From: Eledone cirrhosa
Lineage: Eukaryota
Reading direction: 5' to 3'
Assembly (NCBI GenBank): GCA_964016885.1
Contig: OZ024741.1
Span: 356,190,001 to 356,254,000, forward strand
Length of the DNA stretch: 64,000 nt
Part shown: piece after piece, positions 5,695 through 25,115 of the stretch
Layout of the letters: each line of letters opens with the position of its first letter
Position numbering within the stretch: the stretch's first letter is position 1
Notes under the pieces: generated by a model
Told to the model about the DNA's origin: nothing
Databases searched by the model: none
The model's input: only the letters and a program-made list of their open reading frames with translations
Position numbers and translations under genes: made by a program

Positions 5695-6044
5695 TACCAA
5701 AATCTCCTCCTCTCTATATTTATCACACAAAACTCTCTTTTAATACACATCTCTATATCTACTACCACCATATTCCCCCCTCACTATAGTTACCATGTGA
5801 CTGCCTCTCTTATGTCCCCTCGCTATATCTAACACTAACATATCATCCCCCTCTCTATATTTACAACACGGAACTCTCTTCCAATCCTCCTTTCTATATT
5901 AATTAACACCAAACTCTGCCCCTCTCTACATCTACTATGTAACTCTCTTCCAACCCCTCTCAATAAATCAATTAACACCAAACTCTCCCGCTCTCTATAT
6001 CTACTACACGGAACTCTCTTCTAACCCCCTCTCTATATCAATTA
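5695..6044. repeat. Degenerate ~30/60-bp minisatellite (left part, interrupted by Tx1)
   Basis: Recurring CTCTCTATATCAATTAACACCAAACTCTCC / CTCTATATCTACTACAC units; resumes at 11713. Confidence 0.75.
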
Positions 6045-6245
6045 CCACTTGATATAGACGTGATTTACTTTGCTCCGGATTTTTGCGGATTGTTGTAAAA
6101 AAGAACTGTGAGTTTATTGATCAATTTAATAACATTGTTTGGTTTAGCCCCTTGCCTTGGCCGTCAGACGTTAAGTCAACAAATTTTCGCCCCTTTCTGG
6201 GGCGAAATTTTCAATTTTCATCTAAAAACTGTAGACTTGGTGGCA

Positions 6246-8006
6246 ATGGATGCCATTTCCACCTCGCACACTGTCGTGAGTGCCACGCCCACTAAGAAAA
6301 GTGGTGGAGGGAAGGTAGGAGTGCAAAGCTTGCAGCCATCCCCCCTCGCATCATCGAAAAACGTGGAAAATATCGAAACCGCGAAAGCAAATCCGGCAAA
6401 TAATAGCAGCACCAACAACAAGAACAATGACAACACCACAACCAACAACTGCAACAATAGCAACACCAATATTACCAACAGTGACAGTAACATGGAAGAC
6501 AACAACACCAAAACAACATTTGCGCAGACCGTAAAAAAAAACGAACTATACACGCCAATAGACATAACAAATGCTAAACAACTATTACAAGACGCAAAAC
6601 AATTCGTAACTTTTGGTGAAAACGGTGCTTTTAGCATTAATTCTCCACAGGAATTATGTAGAGAGGCTGTCCTGAAAACTGTGGTTTTCAGGACAATATC
6701 GAACGTAACAAGAAAACCAGCGCAATTATCACAAAATGAGATTGAGCTGGTTCTAAAAGACGCAATGAAGGACTTAACCTTCATACAAAAAGGTAAACTG
6801 TTTGGTAGCATTTCGGTGCTGATGAACAACCAGTCAACAGCTCAAAAGTACTCGATAGCACCTATTGTGTCCCCCCACTTCACCTTTTACCCCACATACA
6901 GGGGAAAAAGGACACAAAGAATAAAAATAATGAGTATCACACCAAATGTAAACATTTGGTGAATACTATGTGGAATAATAAACTTTGACGAAGACAATAT
7001 AATTTCAATTGGAAAGTGCTCCGGAGGTGTATTTGGTGGGACCACAGTAGAAGTTCTGGTGCAAATGAGCCCAGAACGAATAGCGAATATCCCACAACGC
7101 GTGCCTCTGGACGGGCTAACTTATATAAACATTTCAGTGGAGGGAAGGCGGCCGTCATGTTTCCACTGCTTAAGCAGGGGTCACCTGAGGGCTGCCTGTC
7201 CTCAATTAACGAGTCAAAAAAAAAAGGCTCTTCTGCCAACCCCGAACACAGCAACACCACCACCACCACCACCACAACACGGAAAAATAACAACACAAAA
7301 CACTGTTCCACCCAACCCCTCCCCACCTAAAACAAATACAAAAGCAACCACAACAAAACCCCAAAATATACCCCTCCCCAACAACACGGAAGAGGACTCC
7401 GTATCAACGTCACCCAGTGACGACGAGGGAGAACCCTTTCAACAGGTGAAAAGGAAAAAAAAAAGGCACCACATTAACAAAAATGCCACAAACACACAGC
7501 CACCAGCACAAACAAAACAAACATCACAAATAAAAAAAACCACCCCTCCCCAAAACATAACACGTACTATAAAACGCAAACACCCACAAGAACAACAAAC
7601 AAAAACAAACACAACACAACAAAAACTCTATACATACATTAACAAGAACAATAAAACGTTGATGAAAGCGATAGAAAATAACCCTTCGGTGGAAACCGAA
7701 GGGATCACTTTCACCTACGCAGCGAACAAACCGCACCTAATGATGATTAGGGTCCCAACGGAAACCTATGTAACTTTGAAAAACAACCATCCAATGCATG
7801 TGGGGACCAACTGCACCAAACCACATAACAGCGTCCTATTGAGATGTTTCCCCACCCCCACACCAGACACCCACACCCCACCAAACACCCTAATCCCACC
7901 ACACACTGATGTCCTCACCCCACTACAAACCACCACCCCACCAAACAACCCTTCCAACACCCCCATGGAAATTGTGCAGCCTGGCCCCCAGGAGACGAAG
8001 AGGTAA
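6246..8006 (+). pseudogene. Tx1 ORF1 (gag-like, CCHC zinc knuckle) with one in-frame stop
   Basis: Track ORFs 6108-6962 and 7059-8006 share a frame and the gap reads open (ILCGIINFDEDNIISIGKCSGGVFGGTTVEVLV) after a single TGA at 6960-6962; contains CFHCLSRGHLRAAC. Confidence 0.85.
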
Positions 8007-8048
8007 GTAATTTCCTTTCCTCTTCCTTTTTACCTCTTCAGCACCAAC

Positions 8049-11000
8049 ATGGCCAATATAAGAGTTGGATGTGTGAATGCACGCGGCTTGGGGATGTCCT
8101 GGAAACAGGGCAAACTCTTAAATGACCTCAGGTCGCACAGAGTGGATGTAATGGTTATTTGCGAGTCCAGGATCAGCAGCGAGCGCCAACTGGCCCCCAT
8201 CTTCGACGACTTTGAGATCTACGCATGGTGTGGGGGTGGGGTTGTCGTTCTGCTGCGAAAATACCTGGGTCTTGCCACACAGAAGGTACACCTGGACCCG
8301 GAGGGTCGACTGGTGGTTTTAGACGTCGGCAGTGGTGAAGGTGGAGCTTTCAGGCTGGTGGCAGCGTATGCCCCATCGGGGACACCGCGACCAGACTTCT
8401 TCCGACGCCTGGAGAATTTCCTGGGAACGTCTCGCTCCTTGCTTTTAGTGGGGGACTGGAATGGTATCCTGGATGCACGTTGGGACTATGTAGGGGCATG
8501 TCCCGATAGAGGGGGGTGTAACAGCCTCAAACGATTAATCGGCCGATTTGATCTGGCCGATAGATATCGACTGGATTTTCCGACTGTGCCACGGTGGACG
8601 TGGAGTAATCGCAGTGGAACATCCAGGTCGTACCTAGATAGGTTCCTAGTTAGAAATAAGGATAGGGACATATTAAGCTGTCCACGAATGTTCATGGTTG
8701 ACTATTCGGATCACAAGTTGTTGACCGGAGTGGTCAACCTTGATAGAACTCATAGACAGGGACCCGGTTACTGGAAGCTAAACTTGTCTTTACCGACAAA
8801 CAAAGCTTACAGTAAGCGGATTAGCACACTAGTTAAGCAGCGTTTGACGGGGGCAATTGTCAACAACAGGTGGTGGGGCTCTCTCAAGAGAGAAATTAGA
8901 ATAGAATCGATAGGTTTTAGTCGGGAATTAGCATCAGATAGGAATAGAACTGAAAGGGAATTAACAAATAGAGTAGAAGAGGCGATTAGGAGTGGCAACG
9001 TAGCCGGCGTGCTGGCGTCAAGAACGGCCCTAGACCAGTTCTTTGATGCGAAGCACGAGGGCTGCGTTGTCAGGAGTAAAATACGTGCTCTGGGTAACGA
9101 GGGAGCCAAAGCTGTTAGCTGGGCCCGAGTGACAGAGGCAAAAAGTGGTAACAAGTCCACGATTCGGTCTTTGAAGGACCAGGATGGACGCGTGATCCTT
9201 GAACCGGAGCGGATGAGCGCGGCCTTTCAACGGCGCTTTGCACGACTGTTCGGGAGGGGAGGCGGGCCGGGTGGGGCCATGGATTTCGGTCCATACCTCG
9301 ACGGTCTGGCGCGGCTCTCGGACGGGGAGGCGAAGTCCTGCGAGAGGCCGATTTCAGCCGCTGAAATGGGGAAAGCGCTGAGCCAATGCGGCAAACGCAA
9401 ATCTCCGGGTCTCGATGGTCTACCATACGAACTTTATGTAGCGATGCCGGGCTTGTTCTCCGGTCTCCTCGAGTCGGTCTACTGCAACTGGCAACAGAAC
9501 GGGAGAATTCCCAGTTCTGTGACCAAGGGCGTAGTCACGCTGGTGAGGAAGGACGAGAACAAGGGGGATGACATAGATAACTTCAGGCCCATAACTCTGC
9601 TAAACACAGAGTTAAAGATTTTGGCCAAGGTGTTAGCGAAGAGGTTGGCGCTTGTCGTCGGGAACCTGGTGGGAGAAGCGCAGACATGCGCAATCCCGTG
9701 CAGGTCCATACACGACAACCTCCACCTCATGCGATACATCGTAGAGAGGGTAGGGAACGAACCCGGCTTTGGTGGGGCCCTGATCAACTTGGATCAATCT
9801 AAAGCGTTCGATAGGGTTGACCATCGGTACCTGGATGCGGTGCTCGCGGCGGCAGGCTTCGGACCCGTTTTCAGGGGCTGGATTGCTGCAATGCACAGCA
9901 GCAACACCTGCTCGAGGGTCAAGGTGAACGGCTACCTCTCGGAGCCGTTCCAAATCACGCGATCCATTCGACAGGGATGCCTTCTCTCCTCCCTCCTGTA
10001 TGTGCTGGCTCTCGAGCCACTACTGAGGAAGCTGGAGCTGTTGCAGGGCATCCCCTTGGAACCGGGATTGCGGAAAGCGGTGTCGGCCTACGCCGATGAC
10101 GTGACAGTAATGGTGTCGTGCGCCTCGGAAATCGGGCAGATCGGCACCTTACTGGAGGAATATGAAAGGTTCACAGGAGCCAAGCTGAACCGGGACAAGT
10201 CCGTCGGTTTGCAACTCGGAACGTGGAGGGGCAAAACGATGCCCTCCGACGGCATCGTCGGACGCTGGACGGAGGGACCGGTGAAGCTGCTCGGGGTCTT
10301 GTTCGGACCGGACCTCCAGGTGGAGAAAAACTGGGACGAGGTAACGGGCAAGGTGTTAGCACTCGCCCAGAAGTGGGCCGAGTGCAAACTATCCCTGAAA
10401 GGTCGAGCGGAGGTGGCGAACGCTTATATAGCGTCCGTCATCTACTACCGCTTGACCGTCGTGCCTTGCCCAGAGAAAACACTCGCCAAAATGGAGCGCG
10501 CGCTCTTCCGATTTCTTTGGAAGAAGCGGGCTCCTTTGGTGAGAAGATCCATCTGCTGTCAACACCCTTCGAACGGAGGGCTGGGGCTGCCGTGGCTGAC
10601 GATGCGTAGACACGCATTAAGGCTACGGCACCTCCAGGTATTCCTCACCGGTCAGCCGGTGTGGACCCTGTTTGTGAGGCGAGCCTTTCCGAGACTCGTC
10701 TCACTCACCGAGCTGCAATCCTGGATCAAGCAAAGACCGAGAAAAATGGGCGACTGGCACATTGAATGTGCCCAGGCGCTCACGGCCCTCTGGCAAGCGG
10801 ATCCGGCAATCAGTGGAGACTCAACCTCAACATTCTATAGAGGGTTGGTGCGCAGTAAGTGCGACGACGCTCTCGGACAGGCTCTGGGCATGGAGGAAGA
10901 CGAGCTGGCCAGTCTGTTCGGTAGGACGTTTGGCCCGGGACCGATGGACAACTTCCAAAAGTCCCTGGCTTGGCAATGTTACCGAGGAGCTCTACCCGTT

Positions 11001-11471
11001 CGGGACAAGCTCTACAGACATGGGCGCCCGGGTAGGGACCCCTCGAAGAAGATCTGTCCAAGATGCGTGCGTGACAAGGAAACCGTCGCACACGCATTCG
11101 TACACTGCCCGGGCGTTGCTGACCTGTGGGGCTATGTAGAACGACTACTGTCGCGGGTGGGACCAATCCGGTTGACCACCGAGAACATTGTGACAATCAA
11201 ACCGCCTCCCCCTTTCAAAAACGAAGGAGAGGCGGTTTTCCTCTGTGTGATAGCCATGGCGAAAGAAGTTGTATGGTGGACAAGGTTGAAAGGGCTGAGG
11301 TCAGACACCTATCTCTCCGGCCAACAACTGGTCTTTTTTTTCAAGTACCACTTTAGAAGAAGGATCAGAATGGAGAGAGAGGTGCTCTACCCCAGCAAGT
11401 TTTATGAAAGATGGGTGAAAGTAGCGAGAATGGCCCGAGTGAATGGGCCTTCTCTCTATATCAGCCTGTAG
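8049..11471 (+). CDS. Tx1 ORF2: APE endonuclease + reverse transcriptase + C-terminal zinc finger
   Basis: GCVNARGL, GDWNG, YLDR, SDH (APE); FRPITLLN, LDQSKAFDRVDH, IRQGC, YADD (RT); CPRC...HAFVHC; 1140 aa uninterrupted. Confidence 0.95.
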   Translation: MANIRVGCVNARGLGMSWKQGKLLNDLRSHRVDVMVICESRISSERQLAPIFDDFEIYAWCGGGVVVLLRKYLGLATQKVHLDPEGRLVVLDVGSGEGGAFRLVAAYAPSGTPRPDFFRRLENFLGTSRSLLLVGDWNGILDARWDYVGACPDRGGCNSLKRLIGRFDLADRYRLDFPTVPRWTWSNRSGTSRSYLDRFLVRNKDRDILSCPRMFMVDYSDHKLLTGVVNLDRTHRQGPGYWKLNLSLPTNKAYSKRISTLVKQRLTGAIVNNRWWGSLKREIRIESIGFSRELASDRNRTERELTNRVEEAIRSGNVAGVLASRTALDQFFDAKHEGCVVRSKIRALGNEGAKAVSWARVTEAKSGNKSTIRSLKDQDGRVILEPERMSAAFQRRFARLFGRGGGPGGAMDFGPYLDGLARLSDGEAKSCERPISAAEMGKALSQCGKRKSPGLDGLPYELYVAMPGLFSGLLESVYCNWQQNGRIPSSVTKGVVTLVRKDENKGDDIDNFRPITLLNTELKILAKVLAKRLALVVGNLVGEAQTCAIPCRSIHDNLHLMRYIVERVGNEPGFGGALINLDQSKAFDRVDHRYLDAVLAAAGFGPVFRGWIAAMHSSNTCSRVKVNGYLSEPFQITRSIRQGCLLSSLLYVLALEPLLRKLELLQGIPLEPGLRKAVSAYADDVTVMVSCASEIGQIGTLLEEYERFTGAKLNRDKSVGLQLGTWRGKTMPSDGIVGRWTEGPVKLLGVLFGPDLQVEKNWDEVTGKVLALAQKWAECKLSLKGRAEVANAYIASVIYYRLTVVPCPEKTLAKMERALFRFLWKKRAPLVRRSICCQHPSNGGLGLPWLTMRRHALRLRHLQVFLTGQPVWTLFVRRAFPRLVSLTELQSWIKQRPRKMGDWHIECAQALTALWQADPAISGDSTSTFYRGLVRSKCDDALGQALGMEEDELASLFGRTFGPGPMDNFQKSLAWQCYRGALPVRDKLYRHGRPGRDPSKKICPRCVRDKETVAHAFVHCPGVADLWGYVERLLSRVGPIRLTTENIVTIKPPPPFKNEGEAVFLCVIAMAKEVVWWTRLKGLRSDTYLSGQQLVFFFKYHFRRRIRMEREVLYPSKFYERWVKVARMARVNGPSLYISL

Positions 11472-11712
11472 GTGAGAGAGGAGAAGAATGAGGAGAGGAA
11501 GGAAGCACCCGCTCTTTGTGCTCCTGAAGAGGAGGGTTGCACATTTTTTCGGGGGTGTGTGCGACCCATGTCAACGCCCCTCCCTATTGAGGACATCGAT
11601 TGTTAAATTTAATTTGTTATATGTTTTTTACACGTCTTTTTAAATGTATGTAAACTCCCCCCTTTGTATTTGTCCCAATCTTTGATACCCTGGTGGCAAA
11701 TAAATAGAAATA

Positions 11713-11995
11713 TATATCAATTAACATCTAACTCTCCTCCTCTCTATATCTACTACACAAATCTCTCTTCCAGTACCCTTCTCTATATATGAATTAACAC
11801 CAAACCTTCCCCCTCTCTATATCTAATATACAACACACTCTCCCAACCCCCTCTCTATACCAATAACCACCAAACTCTCCACCTCTCTCTATTTACCCTA
11901 CAACACTCTCATTATCTCCCTCTCTATATCAATTAACATTAAACTCTCCTCCTCTCTATATCTACCACACAACCTTCTCTCCCAATCCCCTCTCT
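11713..11995. repeat. Degenerate minisatellite (right part)
   Basis: Same units as 5695-6044. Confidence 0.75.
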
Positions 11996-12009: not shown

Positions 12010-12400
12010 CTCCCAATAAAGAATGGACCCCCCCCCCCCCATCTTAATAAAAACGGATTCTCCTCTTCCCCAATAAAAAACGGACCCCCTCTTCCCCAAT
12101 AAAAAACTGAGCCCTTTCCCCCAATAAAAGACGGACCCCCTCATATAAACGGAACCACCCTTCCCCCATAATAAACAAACTCCCACCCCAATAAAAAGCC
12201 CCCCCCCCTAAAACATGGACCCACCCCCAATAAAAACCGGACCCTCCCCGATAAAAAACGGATCTCCCGCAATAAAAATTGAACCCGCCCCCTAAAAAAA
12301 ATAAAAACGGATTCCCCCCAATAAAAATCGGAGCCCCCTCATAAAAACGCCCCCCGCCCTCCATAAAAATAGACCCACCCACCCCTCCAATAAAAAACGC
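12010..12400. repeat. Degenerate ~22-25-bp minisatellite CCCCAATAAAAAACGGA
   Basis: Many irregular copies of C-run + AATAAAA + ACGGA. Confidence 0.75.
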
Positions 12401-12401
12401 A

Positions 12402-12860
12402 ATGATTTGTTCGGCGACATCTTAGCGGACGAACGTTTACGCCAACTGGCAGCAGAACAGGAGAATTCCCAGTTCTGTGAACCGAGGGGCGGTTGCGTTG
12501 CTCAGAAAATATCCGAACAAAGGGGACTATACAGATAATTTCAGGCCCATAACTCTGCTAAATGCAGAGTGTAAGATTTTGGCCAGTGTGTTAGCGACGA
12601 TGTTGGTGCTTGTCGTTGATGGTCTGGTAGGAGAGGCGCAAACATGTGCCATTCCGCATAGTTCCATTCACGACAACCTCCACCATATGTGATATATCAT
12701 AGAGATGATGGCTAAAGAACCTGGCACGCGTGGGGCCTCGATCAACCTAGATCAGTCGAAAGATTTCGACGTGGTCGATACCTGGCTGCAGTCCTGAAGG
12801 CAACGGGCTTCGGGCCTGTATTCAGAGGATGGATTCCTGCAATGCACAGCGACATCTGTT
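12402..12860 (+). mobile_element. Tx1 RT relic
   Basis: Diverged match to 9450-9905 (NWQQNRRIP, DNFRPITLLN, AQTCAIP, IHDNLH). Confidence 0.8.
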
Positions 12861-13689
12861 CACTGTGTTTTGATTCTGATGGCTTGCCTAATGAGTGATA
12901 GAATGCGTATATCACTTCTTTATACTCTTTTGATACGTCGAGATTTTGTCTTCCTTGTGATACTGAACGTGGAGGGCTTGAATAGAGATTATTTTCGTTC
13001 AAGTGAGAACAGCTTGTTTCAGCTGCAGACTTTTCGACCCTAAACTGATTCCTCCCTAAGGATCGCGGTCCTTGTTTACCCGGGTGACAACCGAGCCGGT
13101 ATGTGTTTTTGACTGTAACAGCAATTATAATTGTTTCTACTGTAACAGCAATAATAATGGTAATAATAAAATTAATAATGATGATGGTAATGATTTTTTT
13201 ATTAACCACAAAGGGTTTACATAAAAAAACATTAGGTACAGCATTAATGATAATAAAACCCGTGGCCAAAAAATAACTGGCTGGCACTCGGTAGGGGGCA
13301 GCTGTTTCTCATGGGGACGAGAAGCTCACTAATCTTGGTGGATAATGGTCCTAGAGGTGGTATCTTGAATAAAATTACTCCTTGGTGGTGAAGGATAAAA
13401 CGCATAAAGAAACAAAAAAAGATCTAATGGCTCTAATATCACGAAGTAAAGTGATCAAGAAAAAGGGGGAAAGTAATCAAGAAAAAAAGTTTTTTGGCAC
13501 CAACACATTTAAAGTGCCAGAATCCTTTATGACTGTACGGGTATCACTAGGTGCCTACAAGAACATTAGCGAGAGATTTCCTTGGGACGTGGGAATCCAT
13601 AACATTTGACCAACGAGCAGACTCTTTAAAGGGTTCCCAAAAGAAATCTCACCAAACATGGTAGTCGAACCACCTGATTTCCAACAGAG

Positions 13690-14510
13690 CCCGGAGGGTA
13701 AGTAACTCTCCCCATTTTCTCTCTCTCTTGATCAACCAGCCATAATCATAAGAGTATGTTGCATAAATGTTCGTAGCCTGGGGGTCATCATGGAAGTAGG
13801 GTCGCTTGCTGAACGAATTCAGATCACTAGATATGGATGTGACTGCCGTCAGCGAGACCAGGATTTCCGGCACGCTCGCATGAGACTCCATTTTCGACGA
13901 GTATCAGAACTTCGCATCTCTTAGTCGAACGGGAATGGGAGGTGGGGTGGCAATAGCGAAGATGGTGTCTTTAGTCTGTTGGCCGTCTACGCTCCGACTG
14001 AGACCGGGCGGCCAGATTTGTTTAGGCGCCTGGAGTGGGGGACTGGAACGGCATCTTAGACGTACGCTGGGATTGTATAGGAGTAGCTGATAGGAGCTGC
14101 GGGTGAAAAAGTATCAAGTACCTGATCAGACAGTTCCAAATATCTGATAGGTACCGATTAGATTTCCGGAATGTGCTAGTGTGGACCTTGACCAACCGCA
14201 TAGTGTCATCTAGATCGTATATAGGTAGGTTTTTCGTTGGGTCAGTAGATATGGAGTCGCCTATTCAGATTTCAAATTTGTGATCTGCATAGTAAACCTA
14301 AATAGAACATATAGACGAAGACCTGATTATTTGAAACTTAACACGTCATTCCCGGCGCGTAAAGCCTACAAAGACAAGGTCACAACTTTACTTAAGTATA
14401 AGTTGACAGGAGGGGTCGTCAACAACATGTCGTTGGGTTCTCTTAAGCATGCGCTCTTAAGCATGTGCTTATCAGTAGTTAATCCAACTCTGGCATCAGG
14501 TAGGGAGTAA
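13690..14510 (+). mobile_element. Tx1 relic: ORF1/ORF2 junction and endonuclease region
   Basis: IRVCCINVRSLG, GDWNGILDVRWD and SDRYRLDF remnants match 8058-8950; sequence upstream to ~12950 may be its decayed ORF1. Confidence 0.75.
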
Positions 14511-17330: not shown

Positions 17331-20300
17331 TTCAGTCTGTGATATGACCACTGTTTTATACGTTGACTCTACATCTATGGACGTTACTTTCCTGTCATCA
17401 CTGGAGGTCTTACTCCGGTCTGTGATATGACCACTGTTTTATATGTTGACTCTACATCTATGAACGTTACTTTCCTGTCAATACTGGAGGTCTTACTTCG
17501 GTCTGTGATATTACCACTGTTTTATACGTTGACTCTACATCTATGAACGTTAGTTTCCTGTCAATACTGGAGGTCTTACTTCGGTCTGTGATATGACCAC
17601 TGTTTTATATGTTGACTCTACATCTATGAACGTTACTTTCCTGTCAATACTGGAGGTCTTACTTCGGTCTGTGATATGACCACTGTTTTATATGTTGACT
17701 CTACATCTATGGACGTTACTTTCCTGTCAATACTGGAGGTCTTACTTCGGTCTGTGATATTACCACTGTTTTATATGTTGACTCTACATCTATGGACGTT
17801 ATTTTCCTGTCAATACTGGAGGTCTTACTTCGGTCTGTGATATTACCACTGTTTTATAGGTTGACTCTACATCTATGAACGTTATTTTCCTGTCATCACT
17901 GGAAGTCTTACTTCGGTCTGTGATATTACCACTGTTTTATACGTTGACTCTACATCTATGGACGTTATTTTCCTGTCATTACTGAAGGTCTTACTTCGGT
18001 CTGTGATATTACCACTGTTTTATATGTTGACTCTACATCTATGAACGTTATTTTCCTGTCATCACTGGAGGTCTTACTTCGGTCTGTGATATGACCACTG
18101 TTTTATACGTTGACTCTACATCTATGAACGTTACTTTCCTGTCAATACTGGAGGTCTTACTTCGGTCTGTGATATTACCACTGTTTTATATGTTGACTCT
18201 ACATCTATGAACGTTACTTTCCTGTCAATACTGGAGGTCTTACTTCGGTCTGTGATATTACCACTGTTTTATACGTTGACTCTACATCTATGAACGTTAC
18301 TTTCCTGTCATTACTGGAGGTCTTACTTCGGTCTGTGATATTACCACTGTTTTATACGTTGACTCTACATCTATGAACGTTACTTTCCTGTCATTACTGG
18401 AGGTCTTACTTCGGTCTGTGATATTACCACTGTTTTATACGTTGACTCTACATCTATGAACGTTAGTTTCCTGTCAATACTGGAGGTCTTACTTCGGTCT
18501 GTGATATTACCACTGTTTTATACGTTGACTCTACATCTATGAACGTTAGTTTCCTGTCATTACTGAAGATCTTACTTCGGTCTGTGATATTACCACTGTT
18601 TTATACGTTGACTCTACATCTATGAACGTTATTTTCCTGTCATCACTGGAGGTCTTACTTCGGTCTGTGATATTACCACTGTTTTATATGTTGACTCTAC
18701 ATCTATGGACGTTATTTTCCTGTCATTACTGGAGGTCTTACTTCGGTCTGTGATATTACCACTGTTTTATATGTTGACTCTACATCTATGAACGTTATTT
18801 TCCTGTCATTACTGGAGGTCTTACTTCGGTCTGTGATATTACCACTGTTTTATATGTTGACTCTACATCTATGAACGTTATTTTCCTGTCATTACTGGAG
18901 GTCTTACTTCGGTCTGTGATATTACCACTGTTTTATATGTTGACTCTACATCTATGAACGTTATTTTCCTGTCATTACTGGAGGTCTTACTTCGGTCTGT
19001 GATATTACCACTGTTTTATATGTTGACTCTACATCTATGGACGTTATTTTCCTGTCATTACTGGAGGTCTTACTTCGGTCTGTGATATTACCACTGTTTT
19101 ATATGTTGACTCTACATCTATGAACGTTATTTTCCTGTCATTACTGGAGGTCTTACTTCGGTCTGTGATATTACCACTGTTTTATATGTTGACTCTACAT
19201 CTATGAACGTTATTTTCCTGTCATTACTGGAGGTCTTACTTCGGTCTGTGATATTACCACTGTTTTATATGTTGACTCTACATCTATGAACGTTATTTTC
19301 CTGTCATTACTGGAGGTCTTACTTCGGTCTGTGATATTACCACTGTTTTATATGTTGACTCTACATCTATGAACGTTATTTTCCTGTCAATACTGGAGGT
19401 CTTACTTCGGTCTGTGATATTACCACTGTTTTATATGTTGACTCTACATCTATGAACGTTATTTTCCTGTCATTACTGGAGGTCTTACTTCGGTCTGTGA
19501 TATTACCACTGTTTTATATGTTGACTCTACATCTATGAACGTTATTTTCCTGTCATCACTGGAGGTCTTACTTCGGTCTGTGATATTACCACTGTTTTAT
19601 ATGTTGACTCTACATCTATGGACGTTAGTTTCCTGTCATCACTGGAGGTCTTACTTCGGTCTGTGATATTACCACTGTTTTATACGTTGACTCTACATCT
19701 ATGAACGTTACTTTCCTGTCAATACTGGAGGTCTTACTTCGGTCTGTGATATTACCACTGTTTTATATGTTGACTCTACATCTATGAACGTTACTTTCCT
19801 GTCAATACTGGAGGTCTTACTTCGGTCTGTGATATTACCACTGTTTTATACGTTGACTCTACATCTATGAACGTTACTTTCCTGTCAATACTGGAGGTCT
19901 TACTTCGGTCTGTGATATTACCACTGTTTTATACGTTGACTCTACATCTATGAACGTTACTTTCCTGTCATTACTGGAGGTCTTACTTCGGTCTGTGATA
20001 TTACCACTGTTTTATACGTTGACTCTACATCTATGAACGTTACTTTCCTGTCATTACTGGAGGTCTTACTTCGGTCTGTGATATTACCACTGTTTTATAC
20101 GTTGACTCTACATCTATGAACGTTAGTTTCCTGTCAATACTGGAGGTCTTACTTCGGTCTGTGATATTACCACTGTTTTATACGTTGACTCTACATCTAT
20201 GAACGTTAGTTTCCTGTCATTACTGAAGATCTTACTTCGGTCTGTGATATTACCACTGTTTTATACGTTGACTCTACATCTATGAACGTTATTTTCCTGT

Positions 20301-23300
20301 CATCACTGGAGGTCTTACTTCGGTCTGTGATATTACCACTGTTTTATATGTTGACTCTACATCTATGGACGTTATTTTCCTGTCATTACTGGAGGTCTTA
20401 CTTCGGTCTGTGATATTACCACTGTTTTATATGTTGACTCTACATCTATGAACGTTATTTTCCTGTCATTACTGGAGGTCTTACTTCGGTCTGTGATATT
20501 ACCACTGTTTTATATGTTGACTCTACATCTATGAACGTTATTTTCCTGTCATTACTGGAGGTCTTACTTCGGTCTGTGATATTACCACTGTTTTATATGT
20601 TGACTCTACATCTATGAACGTTATTTTCCTGTCATTACTGGAGGTCTTACTTCGGTCTGTGATATTACCACTGTTTTATATGTTGACTCTACATCTATGG
20701 ACGTTATTTTCCTGTCATTACTGGAGGTCTTACTTCGGTCTGTGATATTACCACTGTTTTATATGTTGACTCTACATCTATGAACGTTATTTTCCTGTCA
20801 TTACTGGAGGTCTTACTTCGGTCTGTGATATTACCACTGTTTTATATGTTGACTCTACATCTATGAACGTTATTTTCCTGTCATTACTGGAGGTCTTACT
20901 TCGGTCTGTGATATTACCACTGTTTTATATGTTGACTCTACATCTATGAACGTTATTTTCCTGTCATTACTGGAGGTCTTACTTCGGTCTGTGATATTAC
21001 CACTGTTTTATATGTTGACTCTACATCTATGAACGTTATTTTCCTGTCAATACTGGAGGTCTTACTTCGGTCTGTGATATTACCACTGTTTTATATGTTG
21101 ACTCTACATCTATGAACGTTATTTTCCTGTCATTACTGGAGGTCTTACTTCGGTCTGTGATATTACCACTGTTTTATATGTTGACTCTACATCTATGAAC
21201 GTTATTTTCCTGTCATCACTGGAGGTCTTACTTCGGTCTGTGATATTACCACTGTTTTATATGTTGACTCTACATCTATGGACGTTAGTTTCCTGTCATC
21301 ACTGGAGGTCTTACTTCGGTCTGTGATATTACCACTGTTTTATACGTTGACTCTACATCTATGAACGTTACTTTCCTGTCAATACTGGAGGTCTTACTTC
21401 GGTCTGTGATATTACCACTGTTTTATATGTTGACTCTACATCTATGAACGTTACTTTCCTGTCATTACTGGAGGTCTTACTTCGGTCTGTGATATTACCA
21501 CTGTTCTATATGTTGACTCTACATCTATGAACGTTAGTTTCCTGTCATCACTGGAGGTCTTACTCCGGTCTGTGATACTACCACTGTTTTATATGTTGAC
21601 TCTACATCTATGAACGTTAGTTTCCTGTCAATACTGGAGGTCTTACTTCGGTCTGTGATATTACCACTGTTTTATATGTTGACTCTACATCTATGAACGT
21701 TAGTTTCCTGTCAATACTGGAGGTCTTACTCCGGTCTGTGATATGACCACCCGTTTTATACGTTGACTCTACATCTATGAACGTTACTTTCCTGTCATCA
21801 CTGGAGGTCTTACTTCGGTCTGTGATATTACCACTGTTTTATACGTTGACTCTACATCTATGAACGTTAGTTTCCTGTCAATACTGGAGGTCTTACTTCG
21901 GTCTGTGATATTACCACTGTTTTATATGTTGACTCTACATCTATGAACGTTATTTTCCTGTCATCACTGGAGGTCTTACTTCGGTCTGTGATATTACCAC
22001 TGTTTTATACGTTGACTCTACATCTATGAACGTTAGTTTCCTGTCAATACTGGAGGTCTTACTTCGGTCTGTGATATTACCACTGTTTTATATGTTGACT
22101 CTACATCTATGAACGTTAGTTTCCTGTCAATACTGGAGGTCTTACTCCGGTCTGTGATATGACCACCCGTTTTATACGTTGACTCTACATCTATGAACGT
22201 TACTTTCCTGTCATCACTGGAGGTCTTACTTCGGTCTGTGATATTACCACTGTTTTATACGTTGACTCTACATCTATGGACGTTATTTTCCTGTCATCAC
22301 TGGAGGTCTTACTTCGGTCTGTGATATTACCACTGTTTTATACGTTGACTCTACATCTATGAACGTTAGTTTCCTGTCATTACTGAAGGTCTTACTTCGG
22401 TCTGTGATATTACCACTGTTTTATAGGTTGACTCTACATCTATGAACGTTACTTTCCTGTCATTACTGGAGGTCTTACTTCGGTCTGTGATATTACCACT
22501 GTTTTATACGTTGACTCTACATCTATGAACGTTTCTTTCCTGTCATTACTGGAGGTCTTACTCCGGTCTGTGATATTACCACTGTTTTATATGTTGACTC
22601 TACATCTATGAACGTTTCTTTCCTGTCATTACTGGAGGTCTTACTCCGGTCTGTGATATTACCACTGTTTTATAGGTTGACTCTACATCTATGAACGTTA
22701 CATTCCTGTCAATACTGGAGGTCTTACTTCGGTCTGTGATATGACCACTGTTTTATATGTTGACTCTACATCTATGAACGTTAGTTTCCTGTCATCACTG
22801 GAGGTCTTACTTCGGTCTGTGATATTACCACTGTTTTATATGTTGACTCTACATCTATGGACGTTATTTTCCTGTCATCACTGGAGGTCTTACTTCGGTC
22901 TGTGATATGACCACTGTTTTATATGTTGACTCTACATCTATGAACGTTACTTTCCTGTCATCACTGGAGGTCTTACTTCGGTCTGTGATATGACCACTGT
23001 TTTATATGTTGACTCTACATCTATGGACGTTATTTTCCTGTCATCACTGGAGGTCTTACTTCGGTCTGTGATATGACCACTGTTTTATATGTTGACTCTA
23101 CATCTATGAACGTTACTTTCCTGTCATCACTGGAGGTCTTACTTCGGTCTGTGATATGACCACTGTTTTATATGTTGACTCTACATCTATGGACGTTATT
23201 TTCCTGTCATCACTGGAGGTCTTACTTCGGTCTGTGATATGACCACTGTTTTATATGTTGACTCTACATCCATGGACGTTATTTTCCTGTCATCACTGGA

Positions 23301-25115
23301 GGTCTTACTTCGGTCTGTGATATGACCACTGTTTTATATGTTGACTCTACATCTATGAACGTTACTTTCCTGTCATCACTGGAGGTCTTACTTCGGTCTG
23401 TGATATGACCACTGTTTTATATGTTGACTCTACATCTATGGACGTTATTTTCCTGTCATCACTGGAGGTCTTACTTCGGTCTGTGATATGACCACTGTTT
23501 TATATGTTGACTCTACATCTATGAACGTTACTTTCCTGTCATCACTGTATGTCTTACTTCGGTCTGTGATATTACCACTGTTTTATACGTTGACTCTACA
23601 TCTATGAACGTTACTTTCCTGTCATCACTGGAGGTCTTACTTCGGTCTGTGATATTACCACTGTTTTATATGTTGACTCTACATCTATGGACGTTACTTT
23701 CCTGTCAATACTGGAGGTCTTACTTCGGTCTGTGATATGACCACTGTTTTATACGTTGACTCTACATCTATGAACGTTACATTCCTGTCAATACTGGAGG
23801 TCTTACTTCGGTCTGTGATATTACCACTGTTTTATATGTTGACTCTACATCTATGAACGTTACTTTCCTGTCAATACTGGAGGTCTTACTTCGGTCTGTG
23901 ATATGACCACTGTTTTATACGTTGACTCTACATCTATGAACGTTACTTTCCTGTCAATACTGGAGGTCTTACTTCGGTATGTGATATTACCACTGTTTTA
24001 TATGTTGACTCTACATCTATGAACGTTACTTTCCTGTCAATACTGGAGGTCTTACTTCGGTCTGTGATATGACCACTGTTTTATACGTTGACTCTACATC
24101 TATGAACGTTACTTTCCTGTCAATACTGGAGGTCTTACTTCGGTCTGTGATATTACCACTGTTTTATATGTTGACTCTATATCTATGAACGTTACTTTCC
24201 TGTCAATACTGGAGGTCTTACTTCGGTCTGTGATATTACCACTGTTTTATATGTTGACTCTACATCTATGAACGTTACTTTCCTGTCAATACTGGAGGTC
24301 TTACTTCGGTCTGTGATATTACCACTGTTTTATACGTTGACTCTACATCTATGAACGTTACTTTCCTGTCATCACTGGAGGTCTTACTTCGGTCTGTGAT
24401 ATTACCACTGTTTTATATGTTGACTCTACATCTATGAACGTTACTTTCCTGTCATCACTGGAGGTCTTACTTCGGTCTGTGATATTACCACTGTTTTATA
24501 CGTTGACTCTACATCTATGAACGTTAGTTTCCTGTCATCACTGGAGGTCTTACTTCGGTCTGTGATATTACCACTGTTTTATACGTTGACTCTACATCTA
24601 TGAACGTTATTTTCCTGTCATCACTGGAGGTCTTACTTCGGTCTGTGATATTACCACTGTTTTATACGTTGACTCTACATCTATGAACGTTAGTTTCCTG
24701 TCATCACTGGAGGTCTTACTTCGGTCTGTGATATTACCACTGTTTGATACGTTGACTCTACATCTATGAACGTTACTTTCCTGTCATTACTGAAGCTCTT
24801 ACTTCGGTCTGTGATATTACCACTGTTTTATATGTTGACTCTACATCTATAAACGTTACTTTCCAGCCATCACTGAAGGTCATACTTCGGTCTGTGATAT
24901 TACCACTGTTTTATACGTTGACACTACATCTATGAACGTTACTTTCCTGTCATTACTGAAGCTCTTACTTCGGTCTGTGATATTACCACTGTTTTATATG
25001 TTGACTCTACATCTATAAACGTTACTTTCCAGCCATCACTGAAGGTCTTACTTCGGTCTGTGATATTACCACTGTCTTATACATTGACTCTACATCTACG
25101 TACCTTATTTTCCAG
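17331..25115. repeat. Tandem satellite, 83-bp unit, ~94 copies, in SLC22 intron 1
   Basis: Unit GGTCTGTGATATTACCACTGTTTTATAYGTTGACTCTACATCTATGAACGTTAHTTTCCTGTCAWYACTGGAGGTCTTACTTC; 83-nt period checked at 17417/17500 and 19741/19824. Confidence 0.98.

Follow-up and report, generated by a model that had tools for sequence, protein, structure and literature searches.

The window analysed here comprises 64,000 nucleotides (nt) from Eledone cirrhosa (assembly GCA_964016885.1, contig OZ024741.1, positions 356,190,001 to 356,254,000 of the forward strand) and carries a full-length, inactivated copy of a long interspersed nuclear element (LINE) of the L1 group, designated here family A1. The two open reading frames of this element, ORF1 and ORF2, are separated by a short spacer, and a motif resembling the 5' splice site bound by the U1 small nuclear ribonucleoprotein (U1 snRNP) lies directly on the ORF1 stop codon (Table 1). 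A sequence-only reading of this DNA had proposed that a 39-nt segment is spliced out at this place, fusing ORF1 to ORF2 in frame. Judged from comparison of related copies across the genome, the donor motif is under selection and the acceptor is not conserved; the junction can be considered a putative element acting on the unspliced RNA.

The LINE copy and its relatives

The copy is assigned to the L1 group of retrotransposons lacking long terminal repeats (non-LTR retrotransposons) by the apurinic/apyrimidinic endonuclease (APE), reverse transcriptase (RT) and C-terminal zinc-binding domain that follow a separate ORF1; the best solved relative of ORF2 is the human LINE-1 ORF2p (E 4e-45). The Tx1 label was taken over from the sequence-only reading, and no named Tx1 reference is present among the 79 database matches of ORF2. 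Nor do these 79 matches include a close fused protein of ~1,700 amino acids (aa), close relatives being nearly absent there. The ORF1 of the clade (L157:960-2873) gives only a sub-threshold zf-CCHC match in Pfam, and among database proteins of 350-1117 aa no relative reaches E ≤ 0.001; in sister families ORF1 is intact and encodes 587-698 aa. The window copy itself is dead. At the premature TGA in its ORF1 the contigs assembled from reads have TGG, and relative to two sister copies it shows a 15-nt deletion after base 178 of ORF2 and a Pro-to-Leu replacement in the QGCP motif of the RT. Since the flank is repetitive, the candidate 11-bp target duplication (6034-6044 and 11713-11723) carries little weight. 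Some LINE copies of the clade border on simple repeats or are stacked in tandem. Insertions into the simple-repeat tails of earlier copies, ATT for B, D and E and TATC, TACC or TGTC for A, C and G, have given rise to head-to-tail stacks (L111-L128, L151, L153, L156, L161).

Genome searches with a relic of a sister family from the same window, with an upstream anchor and with two distant endonucleases, together with the fetched loci, delineated 18 subfamilies: A1, A2a-c, B1-B4, C1-C3, D1-D2, E, F, G, H and I. Family A1 is young and large, with 3,199 first-look candidates in the genome, the top 40 at 96-100%, and its spacer is identical in 29 of 30 loci including the window, the remaining row being a wrong place. 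The relic groups with B3 (tree support 95/93). In every subfamily a donor-like motif stands 25-46 nt before the ORF2 ATG, with a run of pyrimidines behind it and a start context resembling CAAC. A pattern combining donor, spacer and ORF2 start has 11,583 matches genome-wide versus 284 for the reversed pattern; its first 100 rows, sorted by eye, belong to D (35), C (30), A (16), B (7), E (5), G (4) and F (1), with two unrelated. Eighteen C-type copies (L061-L078) have a frame-shifting segment of A type in the ORF1 tail, whereby ORF1 would pass the donor and overlap the ORF2 start; they are possibly a chimeric lineage that still spread. Their classification as a family whose ORF1 reads through the donor was dropped, since intact C copies place the stop on the donor.

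Table 1. Features of the LINE copy and of the neighbouring relic, in window coordinates; a slash within a motif marks the splice position.
Feature	Position	Strand	Remarks
Full-length inactivated L1-group (Tx1-like) LINE copy, family A1	~6045..11712	+	host site is a ~70-bp minisatellite
Donor-like GTRAGT, then T-rich run, in the 5' untranslated region (UTR)	6108..6113	+	similar site in 11 of 16 other copies (A2, C, F, G, H, I lineages); 0 of 5 B/D/E copies
ORF1, one CCHC knuckle	6246..8006	+	broken by TGA 6960-6962 in the window copy
Predicted hairpin core, last ORF1 codons	7980..7992 (extends 7972-7998)	+	ends 11 nt before the stop
U1-type 5' splice-site motif G/GTAAGT	8002..8008	+	overlaps ORF1 stop TAA 8004-8006
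AUG-free pyrimidine spacer, CAAC context before the ORF2 ATG	8009..8048	+	
CAG, proposed acceptor	8039..8041	+	retained in the A1/A2 lineage only
ORF2, 1140 aa: APE endonuclease, reverse transcriptase, zf-RVT	8049..11471	+	Pfam PF03372, PF00078, PF13966
ORF2 stop in TAG/GT context, then purine run; candidate distant acceptor, unsupported	11469..11490	+	absent from family D
Degenerate relic of sister family B3	~13400..14500 (bounds approximate)	+	same donor motif at 13697-13703

Three further features of the window lie outside this copy. A short, decayed piece of RT from a related LINE family (12400-12860) is located between the full copy and the relic, an 83-bp tandem array of ~94 copies with 96% matches occupies 17331-25113, and a LINE of another kind lies on the minus strand at 39039-43186. 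The latter encodes an endonuclease and RT in a 1075-aa frame; its ORF1 and ORF2 overlap, and its junction carries no donor motif.

Donor, spacer and hairpin at the junction

The motif GGT[AG][AG]GT is present in 134 of 147 copies chosen independently of it and in 25 of 30 further copies, and in the 18 copies missing the exact motif the site is still recognisable, with one or two bases changed. All 12 family representatives carry G/GTRRGT, in which positions -1, +1, +2, +5 and +6 are invariant and +3 and +4 vary from A to G only, and each has 7-9 Watson-Crick matches to the 11-nt U1 complement. None of the 21 flanking columns (-12..-2 and +7..+16) is invariant in the same set; conservation is confined to the U1-pairing span -1..+6, with wobble-type changes. 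Among four-fold degenerate sites, 12 of 49 are invariant in the set of representatives (L032 omitted because of a frameshifted alignment) and 30 of 153 in a set of 15 rows that does not include F and B3, the identity at such sites being 0.42-0.94 between families and ~50% between deep ones. The chance of motif invariance is then roughly 3e-4 for five free sites, or 8e-3 for three. The ORF1 stop is placed at +2 in A1, A2a, A2c, C, D, F, G, H and I and at +6 in A2b, B and E, as confirmed in intact ORF1s; each base of the 7-mer is thus silent or non-coding in part of the tree, and the stop cannot explain its constancy. The ORF1 tails of D and E are unrelated, with the donor retained in both. D2 and E copies (L111, L113, L164, L165) have another perfect donor motif within the endonuclease part of ORF2, at about +307 from the donor.

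Selection on the donor, which the sequence-only reading had suspected from the relic, thus extends far more widely than could be seen in the window. The relic does contain a GT (13698-13699), a pyrimidine tract and an AG (13738-13739), 42 nt in all. Its upstream sequence, regarded there as dissimilar, is diverged but homologous: an ME[IV]xxP motif is common to the ORF1 ends of the window A1 copy and the relic. In the relic's family the ORF1 stop is the second TAA (13703-13705), not the first.

The proposed 39-nt segment is present in the A1 copy as described, with GT at 8003-8004, AG at 8040-8041, the stop TAA at 8004-8006 and the ORF2 ATG at 8049-8051. Excision of 8003-8041 would join ORF1 to ORF2 in frame, as both lie in one frame with a single stop between them. 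A length divisible by three, which had been put forward in support, is the wrong criterion, for the frame of a fusion is set by the donor phase and the AG-to-ATG distance; the 37-nt segment found in 24 of 80 sister copies would likewise fuse in frame. Conservation of motif and frame across families had been named as a check, and it holds for the donor motif, not for the acceptor or the frame. In 10 of 20 rows (20 copies, 18 subfamilies) there is no AG between donor and ATG, the AG-free spacers being those of F, H, C1, C2, C3, G, B1, D1, D2 and E, and also of I. Where an AG is present, the segments measure 28-39 nt; joining would preserve the frame in A1, A2a, A2c and B3 but not in A2b, B2 and B4, A2b including two such copies with an intact ORF1 of 638-639 aa. 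Any AG in the spacer occurs in 19 of 98 element rows among the first 100 pattern matches. At the B3 acceptor position sister copies have CG, CA or TG, which would fit CpG decay. Frame offsets of 0, 1 and 2 between ORF1 and ORF2 are all found, with 1 or 2 in 14 of 20 rows; read-through or a single frameshift as a general route is excluded by this.

Spliced retrocopies are equally wanting. A pattern able to catch them returned 18 matches, 18 of 18 belonging to a C-type sister family, and an acceptor-side pattern returned none. The unspliced copies keeping the GT number 516, which sets an upper 95% bound of ~0.6% for spliced ones; all 80 of these that were fetched are unspliced, 35 with the 39-nt and 24 with the 37-nt segment. 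A fusion RNA should leave intron-less daughters, since RNA that makes ORF2 protein is copied in cis (cis-preference, described in the accessible text of PMC5860796). The 5' UTRs of C1, C2 and G contain a T-rich TAG ~68 nt after GTRAGT, an arrangement resembling a short intron, and 0 spliced retrocopies of it were found for the C type (denominator unmeasured); the retrocopy test is therefore without a positive control in this genome. The three available sequencing runs, of unrecorded kind and from one sample, look genomic, with depth rising toward the 3' end, and are not informative on expression; a joint of 8002 to 8042 is absent from the two joints in the read contigs, one joint listing from such contigs comprising 15 of 215 joints. 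On the alignments of these copies, the spacer is not a conserved intron.

Upstream of the donor, folding predicts a hairpin that ends 11-20 nt before the ORF1 stop across families. In B and G it has a 9-bp stem with two pairs showing double changes, and in D and E an 8-bp stem, also with two doubly changed pairs; in A, C, F, H and I a shifted 4-bp core is kept in 11 of 11 sequences, one pair being changed from U-A to C-G in five. When the last 16 ORF1 codons are compared with synonymous recodings, the mean folding z is -2.06, and 13 of 18 copies have z < -1.64; the corresponding counts for windows 32, 48 and 64 codons upstream are 0/16, 2/17 and 2/17, and z averages -0.55 to 0.18 in the further-upstream windows. 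Downstream, the pyrimidine share at +9..+28 is 0.70-1.00 in 12 of 12 representatives, and the spacer is free of AUG over 21-42 nt. There was no Rfam match at E ≤ 1, and no covarying partner for the donor motif was found within ORF2 or the 3' UTR. The 5' UTRs of A2, C, F, G, H and I likewise have, close to the 5' end, a GTRAGT with a T-rich run and, ahead of the ORF1 ATG, a hairpin (window 6108-6113 and 6182-6209; L151, L153, L162, L218).

Readings of the junction

Fusion into an ORF1-ORF2 polyprotein by removal of the 39-nt segment finds its best case in family A1, with a perfect donor, a pyrimidine run, a CAG and an in-frame join; the CAG stands 7 nt from the ATG in A1, A2a and A2c, a frame-joining AG occurs in 69 of 74 scorable copies, and B3 is in frame as well. 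It is nevertheless very improbable as an account of the junction, given the AG-free and out-of-frame subfamilies listed above and segments that are short for an animal intron and have a branch-like YTAAC just 8-9 nt from the AG. The count of 0 spliced versus 516 unspliced retrocopies also stands against it, human L1 having 131 of 6,609 according to the accessible text of PMC5860796. Splicing-controlled fusion as a family-wide mechanism is hence largely refuted, and low-level use in the A1/A2a/A2c lineage is possible; the caveat that 39 nt is too short and that the donor may act apart from this acceptor had pointed in the right direction. Splicing of the donor to a distant acceptor (the ORF2 TAG stop, a CAG in the 3' UTR of family D, or a YTAG at ORF2 codon 138) would remove ORF2 and yield an ORF1-only mRNA, comparable to the gag-only RNA of copia-type elements. 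Such a use would suit the TAG that ends ORF2 in every family read but D, mostly as TAG/G[TC] with a purine run, the long T tract and the CAG that D, whose stop is TAA, has in the 3' UTR, and a final A, with G following, at codon 138 in 15 of 15 rows; by reading, such a join would run into a stop within 0-3 codons in A1, A2b, C1, H, I, B1, B2, B4, E and E2. Against this, no quick stop follows in A2a, A2c, C2 and most C3 and G copies, ORF2 has no island of synonymous constraint (best window P 0.36), and the codon-138 site would keep the frame with just one of the donor phases, another Leu column also ending in A in 15 of 15. When AG sites were scored on 14 aligned ORF2 and 3' UTR sequences with a crude pyrimidine score, the candidates were ORF2 +414, +1840 and the stop TAG, none with clear constraint. 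Retrocopies of this kind are absent from A (80 of 80 fetched copies unspliced) and from C (0 matches), and in D the 11 distinct odd places proved to be 10 small indels and one microhomology deletion ending in CG. Their absence is a weak negative, as RNA without ORF2 would be copied in trans only, and a distant splice is accordingly judged unlikely rather than dismissed. One candidate, L182, joins the ORF1 end to ORF2 +396 across a 3-nt microhomology, not a GT-AG, and was rejected.

The whole junction might instead be a signal for translational coupling, with the 7-mer bound by the ribosome or a factor and its likeness to a donor accidental. A hairpin 11-20 nt before the stop, an AUG-free spacer and a good start context would fit a stop-restart element, calicivirus elements of such type pair with 18S rRNA (PMC5972666, in the accessible text), and a second weak hairpin loops AAGU in many families. 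What makes this reading doubtful is that conservation covers exactly -1..+6, that the A-to-G changes at +3 and +4 correspond to the tolerance of a U1 site, and that the conservation is independent of the stop position; a second GTRAGT with a T run is moreover present in many 5' UTRs, away from any stop, and the second hairpin is mostly compositional (z < -1.64 in 4 of 22). Still less can be said for a motif without function, passed down from a shared ancestor and preserved by the constraint on the stop codon. The families do share ancestry, and their four-fold sites are unsaturated (20-25% invariant), but the 7-mer is constant in both stop frames alongside free divergence of the flanks, the spacer length and the ORF1 C-termini, which leaves little room for such an explanation.

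The reading preferred here, with a probability of about 0.5, is that of a junction element acting on unspliced RNA: a lone docking site for U1 snRNP, with ORF2 translated by re-initiation. The 7-mer points to U1 because its span and tolerated changes match those of a 5' splice site, docking without splicing seems most likely as neither a partner acceptor nor spliced copies are found, and re-initiation fits all three frame offsets, by which neither read-through nor fusion can be general. The RNA would be laid out as a hairpin, a stop inside the U1-type site, an AUG-free pyrimidine spacer and the AUG. U1, whose binding is suggested by the sequence pattern only, may attach to the 7-mer with help from the U-rich run, in the way that such runs aid U1 binding through TIA-1-type proteins. 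Bound without splicing, it would keep the two-gene RNA whole by suppressing early cuts at the AATAAA signals within the A-rich ORF1. AATAAA or ATTAAA occurs 200-400 nt upstream of the donor in 30 of 31 A1, 41 of 48 B and 36 of 36 D copies. Ribosomes terminating at ORF1 would cross the spacer and restart at ORF2, the hairpin presumably refolding at their exit side, and the CAG that creates the 39-nt "intron" would be a lineage-specific by-product.

Several observations weigh against this docking-site reading. The families compared are related and represented by single decayed copies, which makes the donor-conservation probabilities rough, and 7 of the 15 rows in the four-fold set had been selected by the donor pattern. 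Both searches with distant endonucleases returned this clade only and no more distant outgroup, and a metagenome scan for one gave a single unrelated locus without an ORF2 start. The AATAAA/ATTAAA sites lie at non-homologous places in sequence that is 39% A and may be compositional; they are rare upstream of the donor in E (2 of 5) and G (2 of 6). As to the hairpin, the window 16 codons upstream also has a low z in 4 of 15, the covariation amounts to ~5 events on a structure derived from the same sequences, and the B/G-type stem, when taken over all 20 alignment rows, keeps 84% of cells, with shuffle counts of 9-409 out of 500.

A broader and more tentative proposal is that U1, recruited to the ORF1 stop, acts as a switch deciding whether full-length or ORF1-only RNA is formed, either by shielding the RNA from early cleavage or through removal of all of ORF2 by splicing, with the hairpin passing ribosomes on to ORF2. 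This would be control of the protein ratio similar to that of copia, of independent origin in a non-LTR element.

Relation to known systems

The means by which a single LINE RNA yields abundant ORF1 protein but scarce ORF2 protein are still only partly understood. A donor and a hairpin at the ORF1 stop of at least a dozen families and ~11,000 copies offer a precise, mutable target for the question of the ORF1/ORF2 ratio, and if the docking-site reading is true, U1-based control known from copia-type elements extends to a LINE. It is also worth mentioning that thousands of perfect donors across a 3-Gb genome could disturb host splicing. No published splicing, fusion or U1-site motif at a Tx1 or LINE ORF1-ORF2 junction was found in a search outside Repbase, supplements and most subscription papers; in the accessible text of two papers on cephalopod repeats (PMC13282606, PMC8967140) L1-Tx1 appears as a class only and a word search for "splic" is empty. 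The conserved junction element is real and apparently undescribed, its novelty being provisional.

In genomic habit there is a likeness to microsatellite-targeting Tx1-clade LINEs such as Kibi and Koshi, which as presented in the accessible part of PMC4494074 share an L1-group ORF2, copies in simple repeats and tandem stacks, here in ATT, TATC and TGTC runs; that part mentions no junction motif, and placement of the present elements in the Tx1 clade is tentative. For L1 and SART1, termination-reinitiation has been proposed as the route to ORF2 (PMC5972666, same portion of text as above). They have in common with the present clade a short inter-ORF spacer (63 nt in L1, 21-42 nt here) and a separate ORF2 AUG, and in SART1 there is RNA structure near the junction. 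In SART1, however, the structure lies downstream of an overlapping stop-start, whereas the present clade has its hairpin upstream and a donor motif in addition. Human L1 is likewise a LINE with splice signals, and its spliced RNAs leave the retrocopies known as SpIREs; as far as the accessible text of PMC5860796 goes, the human sites are in the 5' UTR and ORF1 and give dead-end products, while the site described here is on the ORF1 stop and no spliced retrocopy was found. A parallel at the junction itself is offered by Ty1/Copia. These elements have LTRs, a single ORF and a real spliced intron with its acceptor, in contrast to the two-ORF LINE with a donor on an existing stop and no conserved acceptor found. 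In Arabidopsis EVD, according to the accessible text of PMC5580714, U1 at the conserved donor of the gag/pol boundary protects the unspliced RNA from premature termination; the two systems share such a donor of U1 type, conserved where the structural gene ends.

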